Assembly: GCA_963664405.1 (NCBI GenBank)
Contig: OY761158.1
Span: 192,001-256,000 of the forward strand
DNA from: Thermoanaerobaculia bacterium
Lineage (GTDB): Bacteria; Acidobacteriota; Thermoanaerobaculia; Multivoradales; Multivoraceae
Reading direction: 5' to 3'
DNA: 64,000 nucleotides
The translations under genes and the position numbers were made by a program. This document shows, in pieces, positions 13,901 through 28,445 of this stretch. How positions within the stretch are numbered: position 1 is the stretch's first letter; every line of letters starts with the position of its first letter. The notes under the pieces are model-generated. The model was not told where the DNA came from, searched no databases, and saw only the letters and a program-made list of their open reading frames with translations.

Positions 13901-14133
13901 ATCGGCCGCACGATCATGCGCTCGACCTCCTCCGGCGAAGAGGAGTTGTAGGGAGCATTTACCGAAATATGTGTCGAGCCGAAGGTGGGCAAGAACTCCA
14001 GGGGGAGACGGAGCAGAGAGAGCCAACCCATGACCAGCACGCCAAGGACGATCATCGTCATCGTCACTCGCCGCTCGACCGCCACCCGAACGACGGGATT
14101 GATCGGGACGGGGGCCTCAGTAATCTTCGTCAT
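10993..14133 (-). CDS. RND efflux transporter (subunit 1)
   Basis: Same RND motifs; close paralog of 7841-10996. Confidence 0.95.
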   Translation of the reverse strand: MTKITEAPVPINPVVRVAVERRVTMTMIVLGVLVMGWLSLLRLPLEFLPTFGSTHISVNAPYNSSSPEEVERMIVRPMEDILGTINGVERLTARAAAGYGEVSLEFVSDTDMDLAAVEVRDRLDRIRGQLPDDFERFRIHRFQSSDIPILRANLTAEWEAERLNEFVEEVIQRRVERIEGVAQVRVYGLQTRQLEINLLPSRMASHGIGVRDLVTTLQQNNLTLSAGYIREGSRKLLVRSIGELDSAEDLRELPLNAAGLTLADVADVKYDYPLMEEYDFLNGQPALGLRINKTSNANILAVVNGVKAELTAIQQLPEAEGLSYQIYHDASVDVNKGLSQLRNTGVLGGFLAVVFMLVFLRRVRMTLLVALAIPLSLVLTFVLMYLYRIAGFGDITLNVMSLMGLMLAVGMLVDNSIVVIESVVRHRQTLGEEPKTAALRGASEVSMPIICSTLTTICVFVPMIFLSSSSTNPFADSMKSLGLTVVLVMVASLLVSLTVIPMAAALLLTGSRERKHPIFDRVVLGYGHLLAFTLRHRLAFTSIVMLMLWGSYELYQGIERTMEIPSFERSVSLAVRTPRSYSLEQKEALFDDLYRLFDGKREELEIADISYSYRRGSRKESYHGSSSRFELFLLPEEQAKLSTLEIRDKIDEILPVLAGVETTVGRSMRGRGGGKGGMEIELTGDDSAILEYLSEQAMDRLVELPFVRAVGSSLESGDEEIHVEVNRERALQAGLSTQMVAGSINDALSTRPVTYFKGEDKEIGLVVQYREEDRETLEQLKKMNIHTEETALPIGSLASFESVPGPKRIERENRMSKLSISIETEGNIPSFGMMGAVSGFLGSIGLPPGYSWGMGRSFMYAQQDEEDSAFALLFALLLIYMIMASLFESFLQPLTILFSIPFAFIGVGLVMKIASQPRGNSTEMGLIILAGIVVNNAIVLIDHVNHLRKAGLGRTEAIIQGGRNRLRPIVMTAVTTILGLSPMVAPFFLPGVFGQVEGRAAMWAPIGLIILGGLTTSTFLTLMIIPTIYSLVDDVVLFMKRVVRTA

Positions 14134-14174
14134 CAACGCATCTCTCGGGCAAGGAAGCGAGCGGCGAAGGGACG

Positions 14175-14690
14175 CTACTTGCGTCCCTCGCTGCCCTGGG
14201 CAGAGGCGTGCAAGCGCTCGGCCTGCTCCAGGTTACGAGCGTCGATCTTGGCCATCATCTCGTCGAAACGAAGCTTCTGCCGCGGATCCAGGAGATCCCG
14301 AATGTCGTGCCGAAAGGCGTCACGGATGTCGCAGTAGGCGTACCGAGAGCTCTCCCAGAACTCGTGGGCCTCATGTCTGTTCTCGCCCAGACTTTCTTCC
14401 AGCCGTGCGACTTGAGCCGCATCGAGAGCAAGCTCCTCGCTAAAACTGGAGAGCAGACGCCGATGCAGGCGCTTAGCGAAGGACCGGGGGTAGCCGGGCT
14501 CGTCCTCGATCGAGAGCGGACCTCTATCGTCGCAGATGAACCACATCGGAGCTTGCGCCTTCTGCGGCGAGGCGTCGGCGAAAACCGACTGCGGCTGGAG
14601 AAGCAGGCGGTCGACGATCACTCCCAAGCAGAGGCCCACCACCACCGCCAACCCGAGGGAGGACCACATCCAGTTCTTGGCGTTCACCAT
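14175..14690 (-). CDS. Membrane-anchored periplasmic helical protein, Spy/CpxP/ZraP-like
   Basis: N-terminal TM; 'EELALDAAQ..L' and 'IRDLLDPRQ..FD' resemble LTxxQ repeats; follows sigma/anti-sigma. Confidence 0.6.
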   Translation of the reverse strand: MVNAKNWMWSSLGLAVVVGLCLGVIVDRLLLQPQSVFADASPQKAQAPMWFICDDRGPLSIEDEPGYPRSFAKRLHRRLLSSFSEELALDAAQVARLEESLGENRHEAHEFWESSRYAYCDIRDAFRHDIRDLLDPRQKLRFDEMMAKIDARNLEQAERLHASAQGSEGRK

Positions 14691-14704
14691 AGCCGTCTTC
14701 TCCC

Positions 14705-15139
14705 TCAGAGATCGCCCATGGCGATACGCAGCACCGGCTCCACTTCGGTGCTTTCTAGAGTCACGTCATCTACGCCGTTACCCACCGCAAGTCTCTCCAG
14801 CTGGACCAGCGGATCGATGCGATCATCAGAAATCCAAAGCACCGCCGCGGCGGTCACGACCGCGCTCACCGCAATCGGTATCAGGCGAAGGGCCACCCAT
14901 CGCCAAGGGGGAACAGCTCTTAGCGAAGCCAACATCTGGTCGCGACGCTGGCGAAAGCGCACCACAAAGAACGGATCTTCCCGGGCGACGTCCGCGGGAA
15001 CGCGCAACAGGTCGGAGATCTGGCTGAAGTCATCGATCTGTTTGGCCACCTCTGCCGACGCCTGGGTCTCTTCCCCCCGATCGGCACTCTCGCGATCGAA
15101 GATCACCGAGGCCAATGAATCACTCGTCTTTCGGTTCAT
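14705..15139 (-). CDS. Putative single-pass anti-sigma factor
   Basis: Overlaps ECF sigma stop; cytoplasmic 'DPFFVVRF', one TM, short periplasmic tail. Confidence 0.65.
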   Translation of the reverse strand: MNRKTSDSLASVIFDRESADRGEETQASAEVAKQIDDFSQISDLLRVPADVAREDPFFVVRFRQRRDQMLASLRAVPPWRWVALRLIPIAVSAVVTAAAVLWISDDRIDPLVQLERLAVGNGVDDVTLESTEVEPVLRIAMGDL

Positions 15140-23217: not shown

Positions 23218-23383
23218 CTAGACCAGCGTTTCCAAAGTTCGTGTGCAATAGCTCGAGGTCATTCTGTTCGCTGGCCAGGCGCGCCGACGCAGGCATATTG
23301 GGCAATATGTCGAGGAGGCGAAACGCCGCCAGCGGACAGAAGGGGCCGAGATATGTGCGCGAACTTTGGAAACGCTGGTCTAG
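23218..23383. mobile_element. MITE-like palindromic element, family A copy 1 (166 bp)
   Basis: 24-bp perfect terminal inverted repeat ctagaccagcgtttccaaagttcg; second copy at 48320-48498. Confidence 0.85.
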
Positions 23384-25564
23384 CTAGAAGCGGTGGCCTC
23401 CGTGGGCTCCATAGAGGAGCTCGAACTGGAGGAACAAGCTCGACTCGTCGCGCTCGAGATGGTCGGCGCGGTCCCAGTTGTACTGGAGGCGGAGCTTCGA
23501 GAACTCACTGGGAAAGAAACTCAGGTTCGGAGAGATGCGAAGACGGAAGGCGCGGAGTGGATCCGCCTCAGCTTCGCCTTCTGCATCCGCCCAATCGAAG
23601 CGCATGCCCGCTACCCAGCGCGTTCTGAAACCCCAGGTCGCTTGTAGGTAGGCTCCCCAGTCCCGAAGAGTCTCGCCGGGAAGAAAGGATCCCTCCAAGG
23701 TCTGTGGAGCGGCCTCGTAGGCTCTCGTCATCAGCTCGGCCTGGATGGTGTAGAAGGGCCAGCCGCGCTCGTTCACCGGTGGCCTCCACTTCCCGTAGAA
23801 GTCGATGCCGGTGATGTTCGTGCGCTCCTCTAGCCCAGTGGCGTTGGGGCCGGTCACGTGGGAGGCACCGGTCAAGATGGTGAAGCTGTCGGTAACATCG
23901 ACTGAGGTCGAGAAGCGCCCCAAGTAGAGGAGATCCCCGGCTGTGCGCACGTCCCGATCGAGGAGCACTCTGCCGGCAAACTCCTCACCCGGCACAGAAC
24001 GGAAGGACGTCGCGGTCTCCCCATTCGAGTTTTGCACCCCGAAGCTCACCTCGGCGAAGAAGGAAGTCGGGAGCAACCAGTTGAGCTGACCGCCGGGGCC
24101 CCGCAGGCCGTCCGGGCCCAGGAAGCGAGAGCTCACGACCGGTTGGTCCACAAAGCTCCAGGCGTGCGGATGCTGGACATTCAAGCGTCCGAAAGAAGAG
24201 AAGAAGGTGCCTGCCTTCACTTGCAGGCCCGCCGGTAGGGCGAGAGTCGTCAGGTAGGCTTCCTCGACTTCGACAACACTCTCGCCCTCTTCGTCGATCT
24301 GGAAGACGATGAAGGCGTCTCCGCGAATGTAAGGGTCCACGGCTCCAGAGAGGGCGAGCTCGAGATTCTGCACTGTGAAACCACGATTCTTGGGATCGTG
24401 AGCGCCGAGCTCGAGCAGGCGCAGATCGGACTCGCGAGCCGACGAAGCGCCGGCCGAAAAGAGGCCATCGAGGGAAATATCGATGAGCCGTAGGCCGGTC
24501 GATGGGGGGGCCGGCGCCTCTGCCATCGGCTCTTGTTGCTCTCCGGGCTCAGCTTCCTCGGCCAACTGCTCGAGCTCGGCTTCGAGGGCGGTGATGCGCT
24601 CCTGAGCCTGCCGGACGACCTCCTTCAACTTGGCGAGCTCGTCTGCCAGCGCCTCTACGCCGGACGCCTCGTCCTCAGGCTCATCTGCGCGTGCCGGTGC
24701 GTAGGCAACCATGCCGAGGGCAACGAACATGACGGCCGCGCCGCGGAAGTGGCGAAGTCCCGGAAGCAAGCGCCCCACCAGGGCGGCGACCAGAGCGCCA
24801 AGACTGAGAACGGCGACGATCGAAGCCCCCGACGGGAAGTCATAGACATAGGAGAGGTGCAACCCGAAAAAGCTTCCGGCTAGGGCGACACCCAGCGCGA
24901 CGAACACCAAAGGGCCGGTTCGCCGGGTCACGAAGACCGCGGCGACAGGGGGAATGATCAGAAAGGCAAAGACCGGAATGACCCCACCGGCACGAATGGC
25001 GAAGACGATTGCAAACGCCAGCAGCACGTAGAACACGAGGTTCATCATCTGGTCCGCCGGGCCCAATGCCTCTCCGCTGCCCTTGCGGTAGGTCAGGGCG
25101 AAAAAGCGCCGCCCGAGCGCGACGTGAAGAAGGGCAACGGCCCCAAATACCATCAGCATCGACCTCAGCTCTCCGCGGTCGATCGCGAGGACATTGCCGA
25201 AGAGCACGTCCTGGATATCCGCTTCGCCGTGCGGAGTCTTGGCGATGAAGAGAACGGTGAGCGCCGAGGAAGCGGCGTAAAAGATGCCGATGATCGCCTC
25301 GAGTCGGAGCCTCTTGTCACTGACGCGAAGCATCGAGAAGACGGCGGCAGCGATCAGCGTGAGAGTCATCGAAGAGAGCACCGGATCCAGGCCGGCGTAG
25401 GTCGCGTAAGCCACACCCAGCGACGAGATCTGGCCCAAAGCCAGGTCCACGAAGACGATGCCTCGCCTCACGACGTGCACTCCTAGATAGGCGAGGAGGA
25501 GCCCCAGCGCCGTACAGGCGACGAGGGCGTTGACCATGAAAGAGAGCTGGAGCCACTCAAACAT
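23384..25564 (-). CDS. Fusion of a ZnuB/MntB-like (ABC-3) metal permease, an internal signal peptide and an outer-membrane beta-barrel-like domain
   Basis: SD GGAGG before ATG 25564; hydrophobic permease (LGVHVVRRGIVFVDLALGQ, LFGNVL, GVIPVFAFLIIP); 'RHFRG-AAVMFVALGMVAYAPARA/D'; coiled coil; beta-rich region ending GAHGGHRF. Confidence 0.85.
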   Translation of the reverse strand: MFEWLQLSFMVNALVACTALGLLLAYLGVHVVRRGIVFVDLALGQISSLGVAYATYAGLDPVLSSMTLTLIAAAVFSMLRVSDKRLRLEAIIGIFYAASSALTVLFIAKTPHGEADIQDVLFGNVLAIDRGELRSMLMVFGAVALLHVALGRRFFALTYRKGSGEALGPADQMMNLVFYVLLAFAIVFAIRAGGVIPVFAFLIIPPVAAVFVTRRTGPLVFVALGVALAGSFFGLHLSYVYDFPSGASIVAVLSLGALVAALVGRLLPGLRHFRGAAVMFVALGMVAYAPARADEPEDEASGVEALADELAKLKEVVRQAQERITALEAELEQLAEEAEPGEQQEPMAEAPAPPSTGLRLIDISLDGLFSAGASSARESDLRLLELGAHDPKNRGFTVQNLELALSGAVDPYIRGDAFIVFQIDEEGESVVEVEEAYLTTLALPAGLQVKAGTFFSSFGRLNVQHPHAWSFVDQPVVSSRFLGPDGLRGPGGQLNWLLPTSFFAEVSFGVQNSNGETATSFRSVPGEEFAGRVLLDRDVRTAGDLLYLGRFSTSVDVTDSFTILTGASHVTGPNATGLEERTNITGIDFYGKWRPPVNERGWPFYTIQAELMTRAYEAAPQTLEGSFLPGETLRDWGAYLQATWGFRTRWVAGMRFDWADAEGEAEADPLRAFRLRISPNLSFFPSEFSKLRLQYNWDRADHLERDESSLFLQFELLYGAHGGHRF

Positions 25565-25578
25565 CGGCGACCTCCGAC

Positions 25579-26514
25579 TCACTCCCCGCTCGCTGCTCTG
25601 CGCAGCAGATCGAGGTTGGTATCGAACAGTGCGATGTAGTCGTCGGCTCCTTCGACTCCTCCCACGGACTGGGCCAATGTGACCAAGGCCGCCCCTGTCT
25701 CTCTAGCGACCAGGCTCGCCGTCTTCTTGTTGTAGAAGGCGGTCATCAGGATCACATCGACCCCGCGGGCTTTCATCGTCTCGGCGAGCCCGGCGATGTA
25801 ACGACCCGACGGAGCGATTCCCGGCTTCGGTTCGACGAAGGCGACCACTTCGAACCCGAACCGCTGCTCGAGATACGGCCACGAGTCGTGATACGCGACA
25901 ACCGGGAGACCCCGCAGAGACGCGGCTTCGCCCGCCCATCTTTCGATGGCGGTGTCCAACTTCTCGATAAAGGCCGCTAGATTCCTCGCATAGACCTCGG
26001 CGCCACCCGGGTCGACCCGTTCGAGACCTTCGGCGATGTTCCGAGCGATGATGCTCCCGTTGCCGGGATCCAGCCAGTAGTGAGGATTGCCGAAGGGGTG
26101 GATGTCCCCCATGCTGCGGTCTGCGTTGGATGGGATCTGAAGCTTGGAGATGCCGACCGAGGCATCGACATAGCCACTGGCACCCTTCTGGATCTTTCCG
26201 TTCCTGGAGTTGGTCAGCAGGCTCGGCGCCCATCCCTGCTCGAGCTCCATGCCAACTAGGACGAAGAGGTCGGCCCTCTGGAGCTTGACCAGATAGGAAG
26301 GTTTCCCGTCGACAAAGTGAGGGTCCTGATAACCCTTGGCGATGGAGCTCACCTTGCCTCTGGAGCCGACAATGCCTTCAGCGATCGAGGCGAGATCTGT
26401 CGTCGTCGTAACGATGTTGAGCTGAGCCGTGGCGGCGTGAGCCGCCGAAAGAAGGGCGGCCGCCAGAGAAAGAGTCTGGAGCCATCGGCACCGCGGAGTC
26501 GAAAGAATGCGCAT
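25579..26514 (-). CDS. Metal ABC substrate-binding protein (ZnuA/TroA family)
   Basis: Signal peptide; DPH, NPHYWLDP, YHDSW, VEPKPGI.PS; SD GGAGG. Confidence 0.93.
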   Translation of the reverse strand: MRILSTPRCRWLQTLSLAAALLSAAHAATAQLNIVTTTTDLASIAEGIVGSRGKVSSIAKGYQDPHFVDGKPSYLVKLQRADLFVLVGMELEQGWAPSLLTNSRNGKIQKGASGYVDASVGISKLQIPSNADRSMGDIHPFGNPHYWLDPGNGSIIARNIAEGLERVDPGGAEVYARNLAAFIEKLDTAIERWAGEAASLRGLPVVAYHDSWPYLEQRFGFEVVAFVEPKPGIAPSGRYIAGLAETMKARGVDVILMTAFYNKKTASLVARETGAALVTLAQSVGGVEGADDYIALFDTNLDLLRRAASGE

Positions 26515-26667
26515 GACCACCTCCTGCATGATCCGAGGCTGACGAGGCCTCGACGCCTAGGCGTCGGCGCAAGACCTCATCGCATGATCGGGTCGACGAA
26601 GCTCGCCCCACCGCCAGCGGAGAGACGAGGATCACTTCGAAGCCGACTCAGGCAGGCGGTGCGCGTC
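26515..26667 (-). promoter_or_regulatory. Predicted translational attenuator: RAPP/stop codons pair with the downstream SD and enclose two hairpins
   Basis: mRNA CACCGCCUGCCUGA pairs with UCAUGCAGGAGGUG (12 of 14); inner hairpins at 26597-26639 and 26541-26581. Confidence 0.65.
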
Positions 26668-27034
26668 CGGTGGGGCCGTCGATCGAAAGCGCGCTGCGGA
26701 GCGGCCCTGTGTAGCGCCCAAGCGGTTCTGATCTCGGCGGAAGGTCGCCGGCGCCGCGATTTGCAACAGGAGTACCCAGCCGGCGTACCATCGCCAGGCA
26801 GCCAGGACAAGCTTCGTGCTGCTCCACCGTAACCGGCACCAGATCTGGCTGCTCGGCGTGGTTGGAGTGCTTGGCGTCGGCAGTCAGGTCGTTGACGTGC
26901 TCGTGCCGCGCCAGGCTGCGTTCCCCCGCGTCATGATCGTGAACGACATCCTTGCCGAGGGCGACAACGGTCAGTGCAGCGAGCGCCGCGATGGCAAAGA
27001 CGCGCGAAAGTAGATCTTCTTCAGAGCGAAGCAT
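26648..27034 (-). CDS. DUF2946/CruR-like metal-sensing leader protein with a RAPP arrest motif
   Basis: N-terminal hydrophobic segment, His-rich (HDH, HEH, HSNH), CPGC, C-terminus GPTGRAPPA*; SD AAGGAG upstream. Confidence 0.8.
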   Translation of the reverse strand: MLRSEEDLLSRVFAIAALAALTVVALGKDVVHDHDAGERSLARHEHVNDLTADAKHSNHAEQPDLVPVTVEQHEACPGCLAMVRRLGTPVANRGAGDLPPRSEPLGRYTGPLRSALSIDGPTGRAPPA

Positions 27035-27100
27035 GGATCTCCCGTGATCCCTCCTTAGCCTATCAGGCCTCTTGTGCTTCCGGTTGCGCCCCCTCAAGCC

Positions 27101-27493
27101 CTATCCGCCGGGACTCCGCGACCAGGTCCTTATCGGCCCTTGTGGCCCATTGAGGATCAAGCTCGCTCCGCGCACACGAGTGCCAAGCGACGCCCCCGCC
27201 TCGATCCGCAATTGGCCGTTCGCGAGCCTCTCTACCTCGCTCCATACCCGACCGGCCGCGAAATCGGTCTCTGCCAGGCCGGCGTATCTAGCGTCGGCCG
27301 CGAGCGCCGCCCGGGTGTGGGCGACAGCGCTGTCGACCATCATCTCGAGGCGCACCCGCGCGGCCTCTCGGCGCTGATCGCGCATGCGTATTTGCAGCTC
27401 GAGAACGCTCAGCGACAGCGATATGCCGAGCAGGAAGAGGACGAAGATGGCCAAGAGCAGGGCATGTCCCTCCTCCCCCTTCCTTCGCCGCAT
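27101..27493 (-). CDS. PilX/GspK-like pilin
   Basis: Basic leader, G/HALLLAIF hydrophobic helix without Glu5; TGATG coupling. Confidence 0.65.
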   Translation of the reverse strand: MRRRKGEEGHALLLAIFVLFLLGISLSLSVLELQIRMRDQRREAARVRLEMMVDSAVAHTRAALAADARYAGLAETDFAAGRVWSEVERLANGQLRIEAGASLGTRVRGASLILNGPQGPIRTWSRSPGG

Positions 27494-28047
27494 CAAGGCG
27501 CCCCCCGCCGCAGCCAGACGCGAAGTCTCGACTCTCGCACCGTGGTGGTTGCCGTCATTCCACTCGGGACCCCGACGCGCGGGGCTCCGACGGCGCGGCT
27601 GAAGCGGACGCGAAAGGCGATGTCGACCAGATTTTCGCCGAGACGGCGCCAGCGCCACGAGACGACATCGCCCAGAATGCGCTGGCGGCTGATCTCCGCT
27701 CCATCGACGGAGACCAGGATGCGATAGAGCTCGTTACCCATCGAGAGCCATACGATCCGTTCTCCCTCGTCACCGACTACCGTCAGTCGACCGGCTCGCC
27801 AACCCGGCAACAACGCCGGAACTGCCGCCGCGCCTTCGAGGTCATGGCGCAGTCGAGCCAACGCATAGCGCGGCAGCGGGTTGCGTAGCTCGGCCTGAAC
27901 GCGAGAGATCTGGATCTGCGATTCCAGCAGCAGGCCGGTGGCTAGGCTCATGACCACCATCATCACCGCGGTCGACACCAGCAGTTCAACGACCGTGAAG
28001 CCGGCTTCAGCTAGTCGCCGCCGGCGTCCGAGCACGACTACTTGCAC
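27493..28047 (-). CDS. Type IV pilin / pseudopilin (PilW/GspJ-like)
   Basis: Prepilin site AG/FTVVELLV; start uncertain. Confidence 0.75.
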   Translation of the reverse strand: MQVVVLGRRRRLAEAGFTVVELLVSTAVMMVVMSLATGLLLESQIQISRVQAELRNPLPRYALARLRHDLEGAAAVPALLPGWRAGRLTVVGDEGERIVWLSMGNELYRILVSVDGAEISRQRILGDVVSWRWRRLGENLVDIAFRVRFSRAVGAPRVGVPSGMTATTTVRESRLRVWLRRGAP

Positions 28048-28445
28048 GAGGCTCCCTGTTGCCAGATCTGGGTGTCGAGGCTGATGTCGTGCCATCCGCT
28101 TCTCTTGGCGCGCGATCGCGCCTGGACCCGTACCTGGCAGAGACCGGGTAGCTCACTTGCCCTGACCACCAGATTCATGCTGTGTAGCTCGCCGGTAGGC
28201 TCCACCCAGGCGAGTGCCGTATTCACCGGGCCACTCACAAGGGGGTGGGCTCCAGCTCGTAGGCTCTCCACCACCGCATGCGCATTTCTCAGCAGCTCGG
28301 CCTCGGCATCCAGGCCTCGACCGACGGCTTGAACCCGCCAGTGGATGCCCCCTCCTAGGAGCAGAGCGACGGCGACCACACTCGCGGCCACCAAGACTTC
28401 CAACAGAGTGAAGCCCCGCTCGGTGCTGCCGGCGACCTTTGCCAA
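28038..28445 (-). CDS. Type IV pilin / pseudopilin (PilV/GspI-like)
   Basis: Prepilin site RG/FTLLEVLVA. Confidence 0.8.
   Translation of the reverse strand: MAKVAGSTERGFTLLEVLVAASVVAVALLLGGGIHWRVQAVGRGLDAEAELLRNAHAVVESLRAGAHPLVSGPVNTALAWVEPTGELHSMNLVVRASELPGLCQVRVQARSRAKRSGWHDISLDTQIWQQGASCK

Follow-up and report, generated by a model that had tools for sequence, protein, structure and literature searches.

In the window analysed here, a 64,000-nucleotide stretch from a Thermoanaerobaculia bacterium (assembly GCA_963664405.1, contig OY761158.1, positions 192,001 to 256,000), a single minus-strand gene (23384..25564) encodes a ZnuB-type metal permease, an internal signal peptide, a coiled coil and a porin, in that order. 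The fusion of permease to porin in a single gene is confirmed, and it recurs in one clade of bacterial proteins whose junctions keep the anatomy of a signal peptide. From these comparisons, we consider it likely that signal peptidase I cuts the chain at the internal signal, releasing the porin to the outer membrane and leaving the permease with a tenth helix.

The minus strand forms a single uninterrupted frame over 23384..25582, 732 codons when read from GTG 25582 as in the open reading frame (ORF) listing. A stop codon or frameshift at the junction was looked for and none was found, consistent with the one continuous ORF described in an earlier note on this DNA. The gene likely starts at ATG 25564, since GGAGG lies 7 nucleotides 5' of this codon. 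Read from there, it encodes 726 amino acids, identical to the database protein P0002 of the same genome, and ends at the stop codon 23384-23386. In its own genome, a single contig of 6,780,313 bases that is 97% complete, the ORF holds both the sole ABC-3 permease and the sole copy of the barrel. We also checked contig coverage over the junction. Contigs from runs X1, X3 and X4 of two studies cover 23356/7-25700 with no differing letters and no gaps, which is weak alone as independent support because these contigs may include the source sample.

The first part of the protein is an ABC-3 (ZnuB/PsaC-type) permease domain with nine predicted transmembrane (TM) helices (24779..25546, minus strand as for all features below; PF00950 over residues 13-268). 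It scores 133.8 bits against Pfam ABC-3 (cut-off 20.1) and corresponds to the ZnuB-like permease of about 265 residues that the earlier note had placed there. Its matches in the Protein Data Bank (PDB) are PsaC (7kyo/7kyp, 1e-12) and ZnuB (9oko, 1e-9). As the AztB and ZnuB equivalogs of NCBIfam are both matched under their cut-offs (114 bits versus 280 and 42 versus 284, respectively), we assign the permease to no particular subfamily or metal. The structures of PsaC and E. coli ZnuB have been solved and show nine TM helices each, with a cytosolic coupling helix after TM5 (PMC8346216, PMC12236471), and ZnuB is a dimer (PMC12236471). Given this cytosolic position of the coupling helix, odd-numbered helices would run from outside to inside and TM9 would end in the cytoplasm. 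By analogy with these structures, the C-terminus of the permease should thus lie on the correct side of the membrane for an export signal. A basic cluster follows TM9, which under the positive-inside rule is consistent with a cytoplasmic end of this helix. The loop after permease helix 5 contains four residues (F154, F155, T158 and Y159) that are invariant among 29 full-length fused proteins, in which the permease half and the barrel half are both rich in invariant residues. A full-length AlphaFold2 model built with 29 fused sequences has nine long helices and a short helix at 113-120, at low confidence (predicted local distance difference test, pLDDT, 60.4; predicted template modelling score, pTM, 0.42).

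At the junction, the window protein reads RLLPGLRHFRG, AAVMFVALGMVAY, APARA and DEPEDE in order. The first segment has the character of a basic n-region, which would face the cytoplasm (24740..24772, residues 271-281 of the 732-residue reading). The second, AAVMFVALGMVAY, is a hydrophobic h-region and the putative tenth membrane-crossing segment (24701..24739, residues 282-294), seen in the full-length model (m04ae30e385ac) as a short helix at 277-287 with low pLDDT. The third is a c-region with small residues at -3 and -1 (24686..24700), in which candidate cuts fall after ARA or, two residues earlier, after APA. The first base of D300 is 24685, and a cut after ARA would therefore fall between 24686 and 24685, the very position that the earlier note had derived from its basic, hydrophobic and AxA elements. 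The internal signal as a whole spans residues 271-299 of the same reading, after nine helices, and hence is not N-terminal. A lipoprotein signal was rejected by inspection, as Cys is absent after the site. Searches of the genome gave three S26 signal peptidase homologues and three matches to Omp85.

We next compared the junctions of 28 fused homologues, anchored by script and scored with a simple site rule of our own rather than SignalP. The h-region is preceded by 3-8 Arg or Lys residues and in most homologues is a hydrophobic run of about 9-15 residues, while Pro occupies one of the positions -4 to -6 in 20 of the 28. At the scored sites, -1 is Ala in 27 cases and Gly in one, -3 is Ala (25), Leu (2) or Val (1), and Q, E, D or A stands right after the site in 25/28. 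We defined a strict site as A-x-A followed by Q, E, D or A (score 7 or more). Homologues that keep such an AxA site, whose search the earlier note had proposed, are in the majority: the strict site is found at 22 of the 28 junctions, versus 4.8% of control windows drawn from these proteins (726 of 15265) and 3.9% of windows placed after hydrophobic 9-mers within the permease (42 of 1065). A further homologue, P0027, was missed by the regular expression; its printed junction, read by eye, shows TAA and then QE. The junction stretch is at the same time the least conserved part of the fused protein, with a consensus of 'x' among the 29 sequences. Signal-peptide features are thus kept while the sequence drifts, from which we conclude that the junction evolves as a signal peptide and not as a plain anchor.

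The 433 residues from D300 onwards, hereafter the C-domain, were modelled with AlphaFold2 together with 26 aligned relatives (mean pLDDT 83.3, pTM 0.75). The model begins with an acidic, amphipathic, coiled-coil-like helix, predicted to be periplasmic (C-domain 7-44, 24554..24667, pLDDT 85-91). This is followed by a Pro-rich disordered linker (45-68, 24482..24553, pLDDT <50 at 46-62) and by a porin barrel of 16 long beta-strands as assigned by DSSP (69-426, 23408..24481), with a long loop at 163-194 between strands 5 and 6. A C-terminal tail, AHGGHRF (23387..23407), extends after the last modelled strand. The order of acidic coiled coil, Pro linker and barrel of about 370 residues is the one that the earlier note had read from the letters. 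In a structural all-against-all comparison, OprP (2o4v_A) came first with a Z of 28.2 and an rmsd of 2.6 over 297 residues, and DcaP (6eus_A) second with a Z of 24.6 and an rmsd of 3.6 over 307 residues. General porins (Omp-Pst1, PorB) and OmpM1 followed at Z 21-23, and Foldseek concurs, with porins at E 5e-11 to 1e-7. The C-domain is accordingly a porin-type barrel, a point on which the earlier note had allowed for the opposite outcome. By analogy with its closest folds the porin is probably a trimer; a three-copy complex prediction of C-domain residues 1-66 returned scores of 0.12, 0.59 and 0.13.

Sequence profiles place the barrel outside the porin families to which we compared it. The barrel profile gave no match to PDB sequences at E up to 1, and the C-part of the window protein stays under every Pfam cut-off, matching neither Porin_O_P (PF07396) nor BBP2 (PF07642). 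BBP2 is matched weakly by 10 of 26 relatives (best 7e-6), and Porin_O_P is found on 22% of the members of one Atlas cluster. A TonB-dependent receptor was considered and rejected: PF00593 scores 17.8-19.3 bits versus a cut-off of 27, and the model, in place of 22 strands and a plug domain, has a plug-less barrel of 16 strands. Judged by this model, the Atlas cluster label 'zinc-regulated TonB-dependent receptor' is misleading as to fold.

The AHDP, HPHAW and terminal GAHGGHRF motifs pointed out in the earlier note are all present in the C-part, and they belong to the best conserved positions of the family. All 26 aligned family members share H96-D97-P98, H172-P173-H174-x-W176, H428, H431 and F433 without exception, so that the tail carries two invariant His and an invariant terminal Phe, the latter being invariant also in all 29 aligned fused sequences. 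As placed from the secondary-structure string and not from coordinates, GxHDP lies in the first loop and HPHxW (24164-24172) in the strand 5-6 loop. In classical porins, the strand 5-6 loop forms the constriction. Judging from the invariant His residues of GxHDP, of HPHxW and of the HGGH tail, the channel may be selective for a divalent metal, Zn or Mn. Beyond serving as a mere barrel-assembly signal, H428, H431 and F433 could form a metal-binding tail on the periplasmic side.

Relatives of the barrel are numerous, with 4320 representatives at 50% identity for E up to 1e-3 and 1009 for E up to 1e-30, and among the best 150 of these representatives only P0009 has the fused length. Source databases call the members 'hypothetical protein'. 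Our literature search, with subscription journals mostly outside its reach, found no paper on a permease-porin fusion or precursor or on a His-bearing barrel beside znuA, and this porin family appears to be undescribed. Stand-alone members have an ordinary N-terminal signal peptide and then the same helix, linker and barrel; by our heuristic, 61 of 81 stand-alone relatives have a signal-peptide-like N-terminus, or 66 of 81 under a looser rule. Since the stand-alone relatives carry an N-terminal signal peptide, we assign the internal signal of the fused protein to the barrel. Stand-alone members such as P0052, P0057, P0094 and P0104 are 44-59% identical to the window protein over the barrel and share its His motifs, helix, linker and znuA/znuB partners. 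They differ from it in being separate genes that have an N-terminal signal and lie upstream of znuA.

This gene order is highly consistent. In 65 of the 66 genome loci that could be assessed, the gene immediately downstream of the stand-alone barrel is znuA, the sole exception (L006) being inside the fused clade and cut at a contig end. Among metagenome loci the same holds for 53 of 56 assessable ones, and in two of the three exceptions znuA follows at a slightly greater distance. These counts bear out the statement of the earlier note that barrels of this kind usually form separate genes beside znuAB. The synteny persists down to about 28% identity and spans Planctomycetota (including Brocadia), Nitrospirota, Myxococcota, delta-proteobacterial metagenome-assembled genomes (MAGs) and Verrucomicrobiota, and it is found in Omnitrophota, Binatia, Fimbriimonadia and other Acidobacteriota as well. 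The stand-alone order is barrel-znuA-(znuC)-znuB, and the fused clade has znuA-znuB::barrel. Going by this synteny, the most plausible role of the barrel is that of an outer-membrane partner to a ZnuABC-type importer. At one planctomycetal locus (L028), a further barrel match, incomplete like the znuA match that comes after it, is present at 14000-14806, about 5 kb downstream of the first pair, which suggests a tandem or decayed duplicate of the barrel-znuA unit.

The fusion is not confined to the window. PF00950 and the barrel occur in one protein in 30 of the 120 database clusters listed (711-778 amino acids, plus one 616-residue form). Permease and barrel also share one frame in nine of the loci that we fetched, namely 8 of 80 genome loci (L001-L005, L008, L009 and L038) and 1 of 80 metagenome loci (L097). 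This answers the concern of the earlier note that the fusion might be unique. Fused records are named as MAGs of Acidobacteriota, Thermoanaerobaculia and Holophagae, and full-length fused proteins, 29 in number, show 57-85% identity to the window protein, with values down to 55% over the C-part. In a FastTree phylogeny of 186 barrel domains, all 32 fused rows fall into one clade of 35 with an SH-like support of 98, the other three rows being the fragment P0020, P0025 and the contig-end locus L006. A single fused clade fits one fusion event after the barrel gene had come to lie behind znuB. Within the family of the window genome, 1 of 24 other genomes (G003) has the fused gene, 69% identical over residues 1-726, and most of the others are without both parts at E up to 1e-20; the fused operon is thus present in 2 of 25 genomes including that of the window. 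G031, of the same order, has the barrel and znuB as separate genes. We attribute this patchy distribution among relatives to loss or transfer.

Two unusual forms were seen among these proteins. P0030, the 616-residue fused form, is without signal peptide, coiled coil and linker, and its TM9 leads directly into the first strand of the barrel; misassembly at a short repeat (GGL..AG) could explain this form, or else it could be a dead variant. P0025, a 467-residue gene call that starts inside TM9, groups in the fused clade beside P0023 and P0028, and may reflect a split gene, a frameshift or the choice made in gene calling.

The earlier note had left two outcomes side by side, a split by signal peptidase I or an uncleaved protein spanning the envelope. 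The comparative evidence now favours cleavage, without settling the choice. In the mechanism that we favour, the nine-helix permease would insert in the inner membrane and leave its C-terminus on the cytoplasmic side. The retained signal peptide of the porin would then cross from inside to outside and thread the 433 following residues through Sec. Signal peptidase I would cut after AxA at the periplasmic face, and the signal peptide would stay behind as the tenth helix of the permease. The released coiled-coil porin would be handed to the barrel assembly machinery (BAM) to become an outer-membrane channel, probably a trimer, which would pass divalent metal (Zn or Mn) to ZnuA and the permease. 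As a consequence, permease and pore would be made in equal numbers from one message. What the analysis shows is the architecture, the fold, the synteny, the kept signal-peptide features and the single fused clade; the topology, the cut, the trimer, the metal, the fixed stoichiometry proposed earlier and any benefit of the fusion are inferred.

If the signal were instead an uncleaved signal-anchor, one chain would sit in both membranes, with the pore kept above the permease by the connecting helix and Pro-rich linker. Such an uncut chain would cross the inner membrane by ten helices and the outer one by a 16-strand barrel, and as a covalent metal conduit across the envelope it seems to us a doubtful proposition; we know of no precedent for a single chain integrated in both membranes. 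The arrangement does have features in its favour, as the single ORF persists throughout a clade in which identity falls to 57% for the complete protein and to 55% for the C-part, and a helix with a flexible Pro-rich linker is what lies between the two membrane parts. Yet the same helix and linker are found in stand-alone forms with cleavable N-terminal signals, and the c-region Pro and the small residues at -3 and -1, needless for an anchor, are kept despite the drift. Moreover, the distance from the h-region to GxHDP has a median of 101 residues in the fused forms (81-138, n=29) versus 111 in the stand-alone forms (47-239, n=72). The span is no longer in the fused proteins, and therefore nothing has been added to bridge the periplasm. 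Given the width of the periplasm in model bacteria, the 44-97 residues between the scored site and the first strand motif also look short for a bridge. A weaker argument is that the symmetries would clash, ZnuB being a dimer and the closest folds of the barrel trimeric. Altogether, we regard the uncleaved signal-anchor as unlikely. Were the chain uncut after all, the missing recognisable ATPase could hint at an unusual transport mode.

We also weighed an internal start near the end of TM9, which would make a normal porin precursor and reduce the long form to a minor product or to a permease with a useless tail. In-frame GTG 24778 and TTG 24769 lie just before and inside the basic stretch of the window gene, and the database gene call P0025 begins inside TM9. 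Across the eight fused genome loci, in contrast, no in-frame ATG, GTG or TTG before the n-region is common to all. L004 has none of these codons from the ninth residue of the TM9 stretch to the coiled coil, and L001 and L009 have no candidate before the basic cluster. The candidates in the window also have no GGAGG-like site, whereas the znuA and fusion-gene starts both have one. An internal start would, besides, give no reason for the reading frames to have stayed joined throughout the clade. The internal GTG or TTG start envisaged in the earlier note thus strikes us as improbable. It is more improbable still, to the point of being nearly negligible, that the fusion is a sequencing or assembly error, or a decaying or accidental read-through gene with a non-functional product. 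The same layout recurs in the 30 listed clusters and nine fetched loci from many independent assemblies, invariant residues are found in both halves, the gene is the sole copy of either part in its genome, and no indels occur in the contigs of the three runs.

Several points weigh against a cleaved precursor and the transport role that we assign to it. Cleavage rests on comparative inference and not on observation. The site rule is a simple heuristic of our own making, applied to Ala-rich proteins, and under an unbiased rule many homologues have their exact site displaced by 2-12 residues. The 28 fused homologues form one clade and so are not independent observations, and the full-length model (pLDDT 60.4) is too poor to inform the junction or the packing of the tenth helix. 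For a cut by signal peptidase I at an internal signal behind nine helices, the reported processing of the cytochrome b/c1 precursor is the only parallel known to us. The metal and the trimer are drawn from resemblance only. Finally, no ATPase partner was identified in nearby loci or in genome searches, so that the transporter is incompletely understood.

The operon begins with a gene for a znuA-like periplasmic metal-binding protein (25579..26514), directly upstream of the fusion gene on the same strand. The product matches Pfam ZnuA (PF01297) at 184.2 bits. Its listed start, 26529, is probably 15 nucleotides too far upstream, as AGGAGG precedes ATG 26514. The best NCBIfam matches of the product are AztC (zinc) at 105.8 bits and MntC (manganese) at 97.5 bits, both far under their cut-offs. 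An ATPase partner is to be expected, because the cytosolic loop after permease helix 5 holds invariant residues. However, no ZnuC-type ATPase gene is adjacent to the operon in the window. Within 8 kb of the fused gene, an ABC ATPase is absent in six of eight fused loci, and the remaining two have a generic match only, at 28-29% identity. Genome-wide, the best match to the ZnuC model NF007090 reaches 90 bits versus a cut-off of 306, and these matches are generic ABC ATPases. A Brocadia ZnuC query likewise retrieved only generic ABC ATPases from the genome, the best being 28-33% identical. Most barrel-znuA-znuB operons of Acidobacteriota, Nitrospirota and Myxococcota similarly have no ZnuC-type ATPase nearby, and the znuA-znuC-znuB order is confined to loci of the Planctomycetota/Verrucomicrobiota type.

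Just upstream of znuA, a 149-residue ORF (26648-27097, minus strand) encodes a single hydrophobic segment followed by a His-rich stretch, HDHD..HEH..H.NH. It matches neither Pfam nor NCBIfam, and could be a small metal-binding envelope protein or no gene at all. Next to it, 27101-28445 (minus strand) holds three overlapping ORFs with prepilin-like N-termini such as GFTLLEVLVA and FTVVELLVS; these may be pseudopilin genes that belong to type II secretion or to a type IV pilus system. On the other side of the operon, an 84-nucleotide repeat (23300-23383) directly follows the stop codon of the fusion gene and has at least 40 copies in the genome at 96-100% identity. Most copies have an inverted 57-nucleotide partner about 25 nucleotides away, here at 23218-23275. 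The pair (23218-23383) resembles a miniature inverted-repeat element of about 166 nucleotides with CTAG/CTAG flanks, and public contigs stack up and end at it. The gene downstream of the fusion gene is a convergent peroxiredoxin gene.

If the chain is cleaved, the gene would encode a natural bacterial precursor whose single translation product provides both a permease for the inner membrane and a pore for the outer membrane. It would extend the rare internal-signal processing of the cytochrome b/c1 type to proteins of two membranes, and would give a simple natural system in which to study the way that Sec, signal peptidase I and BAM deal with a signal placed internally, behind nine helices. 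If it is not cleaved, the protein would be of a kind so far undescribed in the envelope. To our knowledge, the passage of zinc and manganese across the outer membrane is largely unknown in Acidobacteriota, Planctomycetota, Nitrospirota, Myxococcota and Verrucomicrobiota. The fusion acts here as a 'Rosetta stone' that, together with the synteny, links the His-bearing porins, a large family as yet unnamed, to ZnuABC-type metal uptake across phyla.

Outer-membrane channels linked to metals have been described in other bacteria, among them MnoP of Bradyrhizobium for Mn, RopAe for Cu, MspD of mycobacteria for Zn and ZnuD of Neisseria (PMC6011978, PMC13098993, PMC2895646). Like the system proposed here, they provide a dedicated outer-membrane metal route that feeds an inner-membrane importer. 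They differ in belonging to other protein families, probably so in the case of MnoP, with ZnuD being a 22-strand TonB-dependent receptor, and none of them is fused to a permease. In fold, the best match is to OprP and OprO of Pseudomonas (2o4v, 4rjw), which are 16-strand porins like the barrel modelled here, and are themselves substrate-specific trimers. In contrast to these, which use an arginine ladder for anions and have no coiled coil, the window protein has invariant His, Asp and Glu and no Porin_O_P match. In layout, the closest resemblance is to DcaP of Acinetobacter baumannii (6eus), which shares the order of coiled coil, linker and barrel with the C-domain. DcaP is described as a 16-strand trimer in which a periplasmic coiled coil of 49 residues and a disordered, Pro-containing linker of 10 residues precede the barrel (bioRxiv 10.1101/306035). 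It is only 11% identical, is anion-selective for dicarboxylates by means of arginines, and has no His motifs, no znuA link and no fusion.

For the precursor itself, the nearest precedent is, by analogy, the cytochrome b/c1 precursor FbcH of Bradyrhizobium. FbcH is said, after the work of Thony-Meyer and co-workers, to be processed at an internal signal peptide. A fused cytochrome b/c1 gene is cited for the Bradyrhizobiaceae in PMC4986455. In both cases, one ORF encodes a polytopic inner-membrane protein with a cytoplasmic end (predicted, for the window protein), followed by a second protein with its own signal, an arrangement that would allow this signal to act from an internal position. The difference lies in the destination, as both products of FbcH join one inner-membrane complex, whereas the second product of the window gene, by our reading of its junction, would be cut free and end up as a barrel in the outer membrane.

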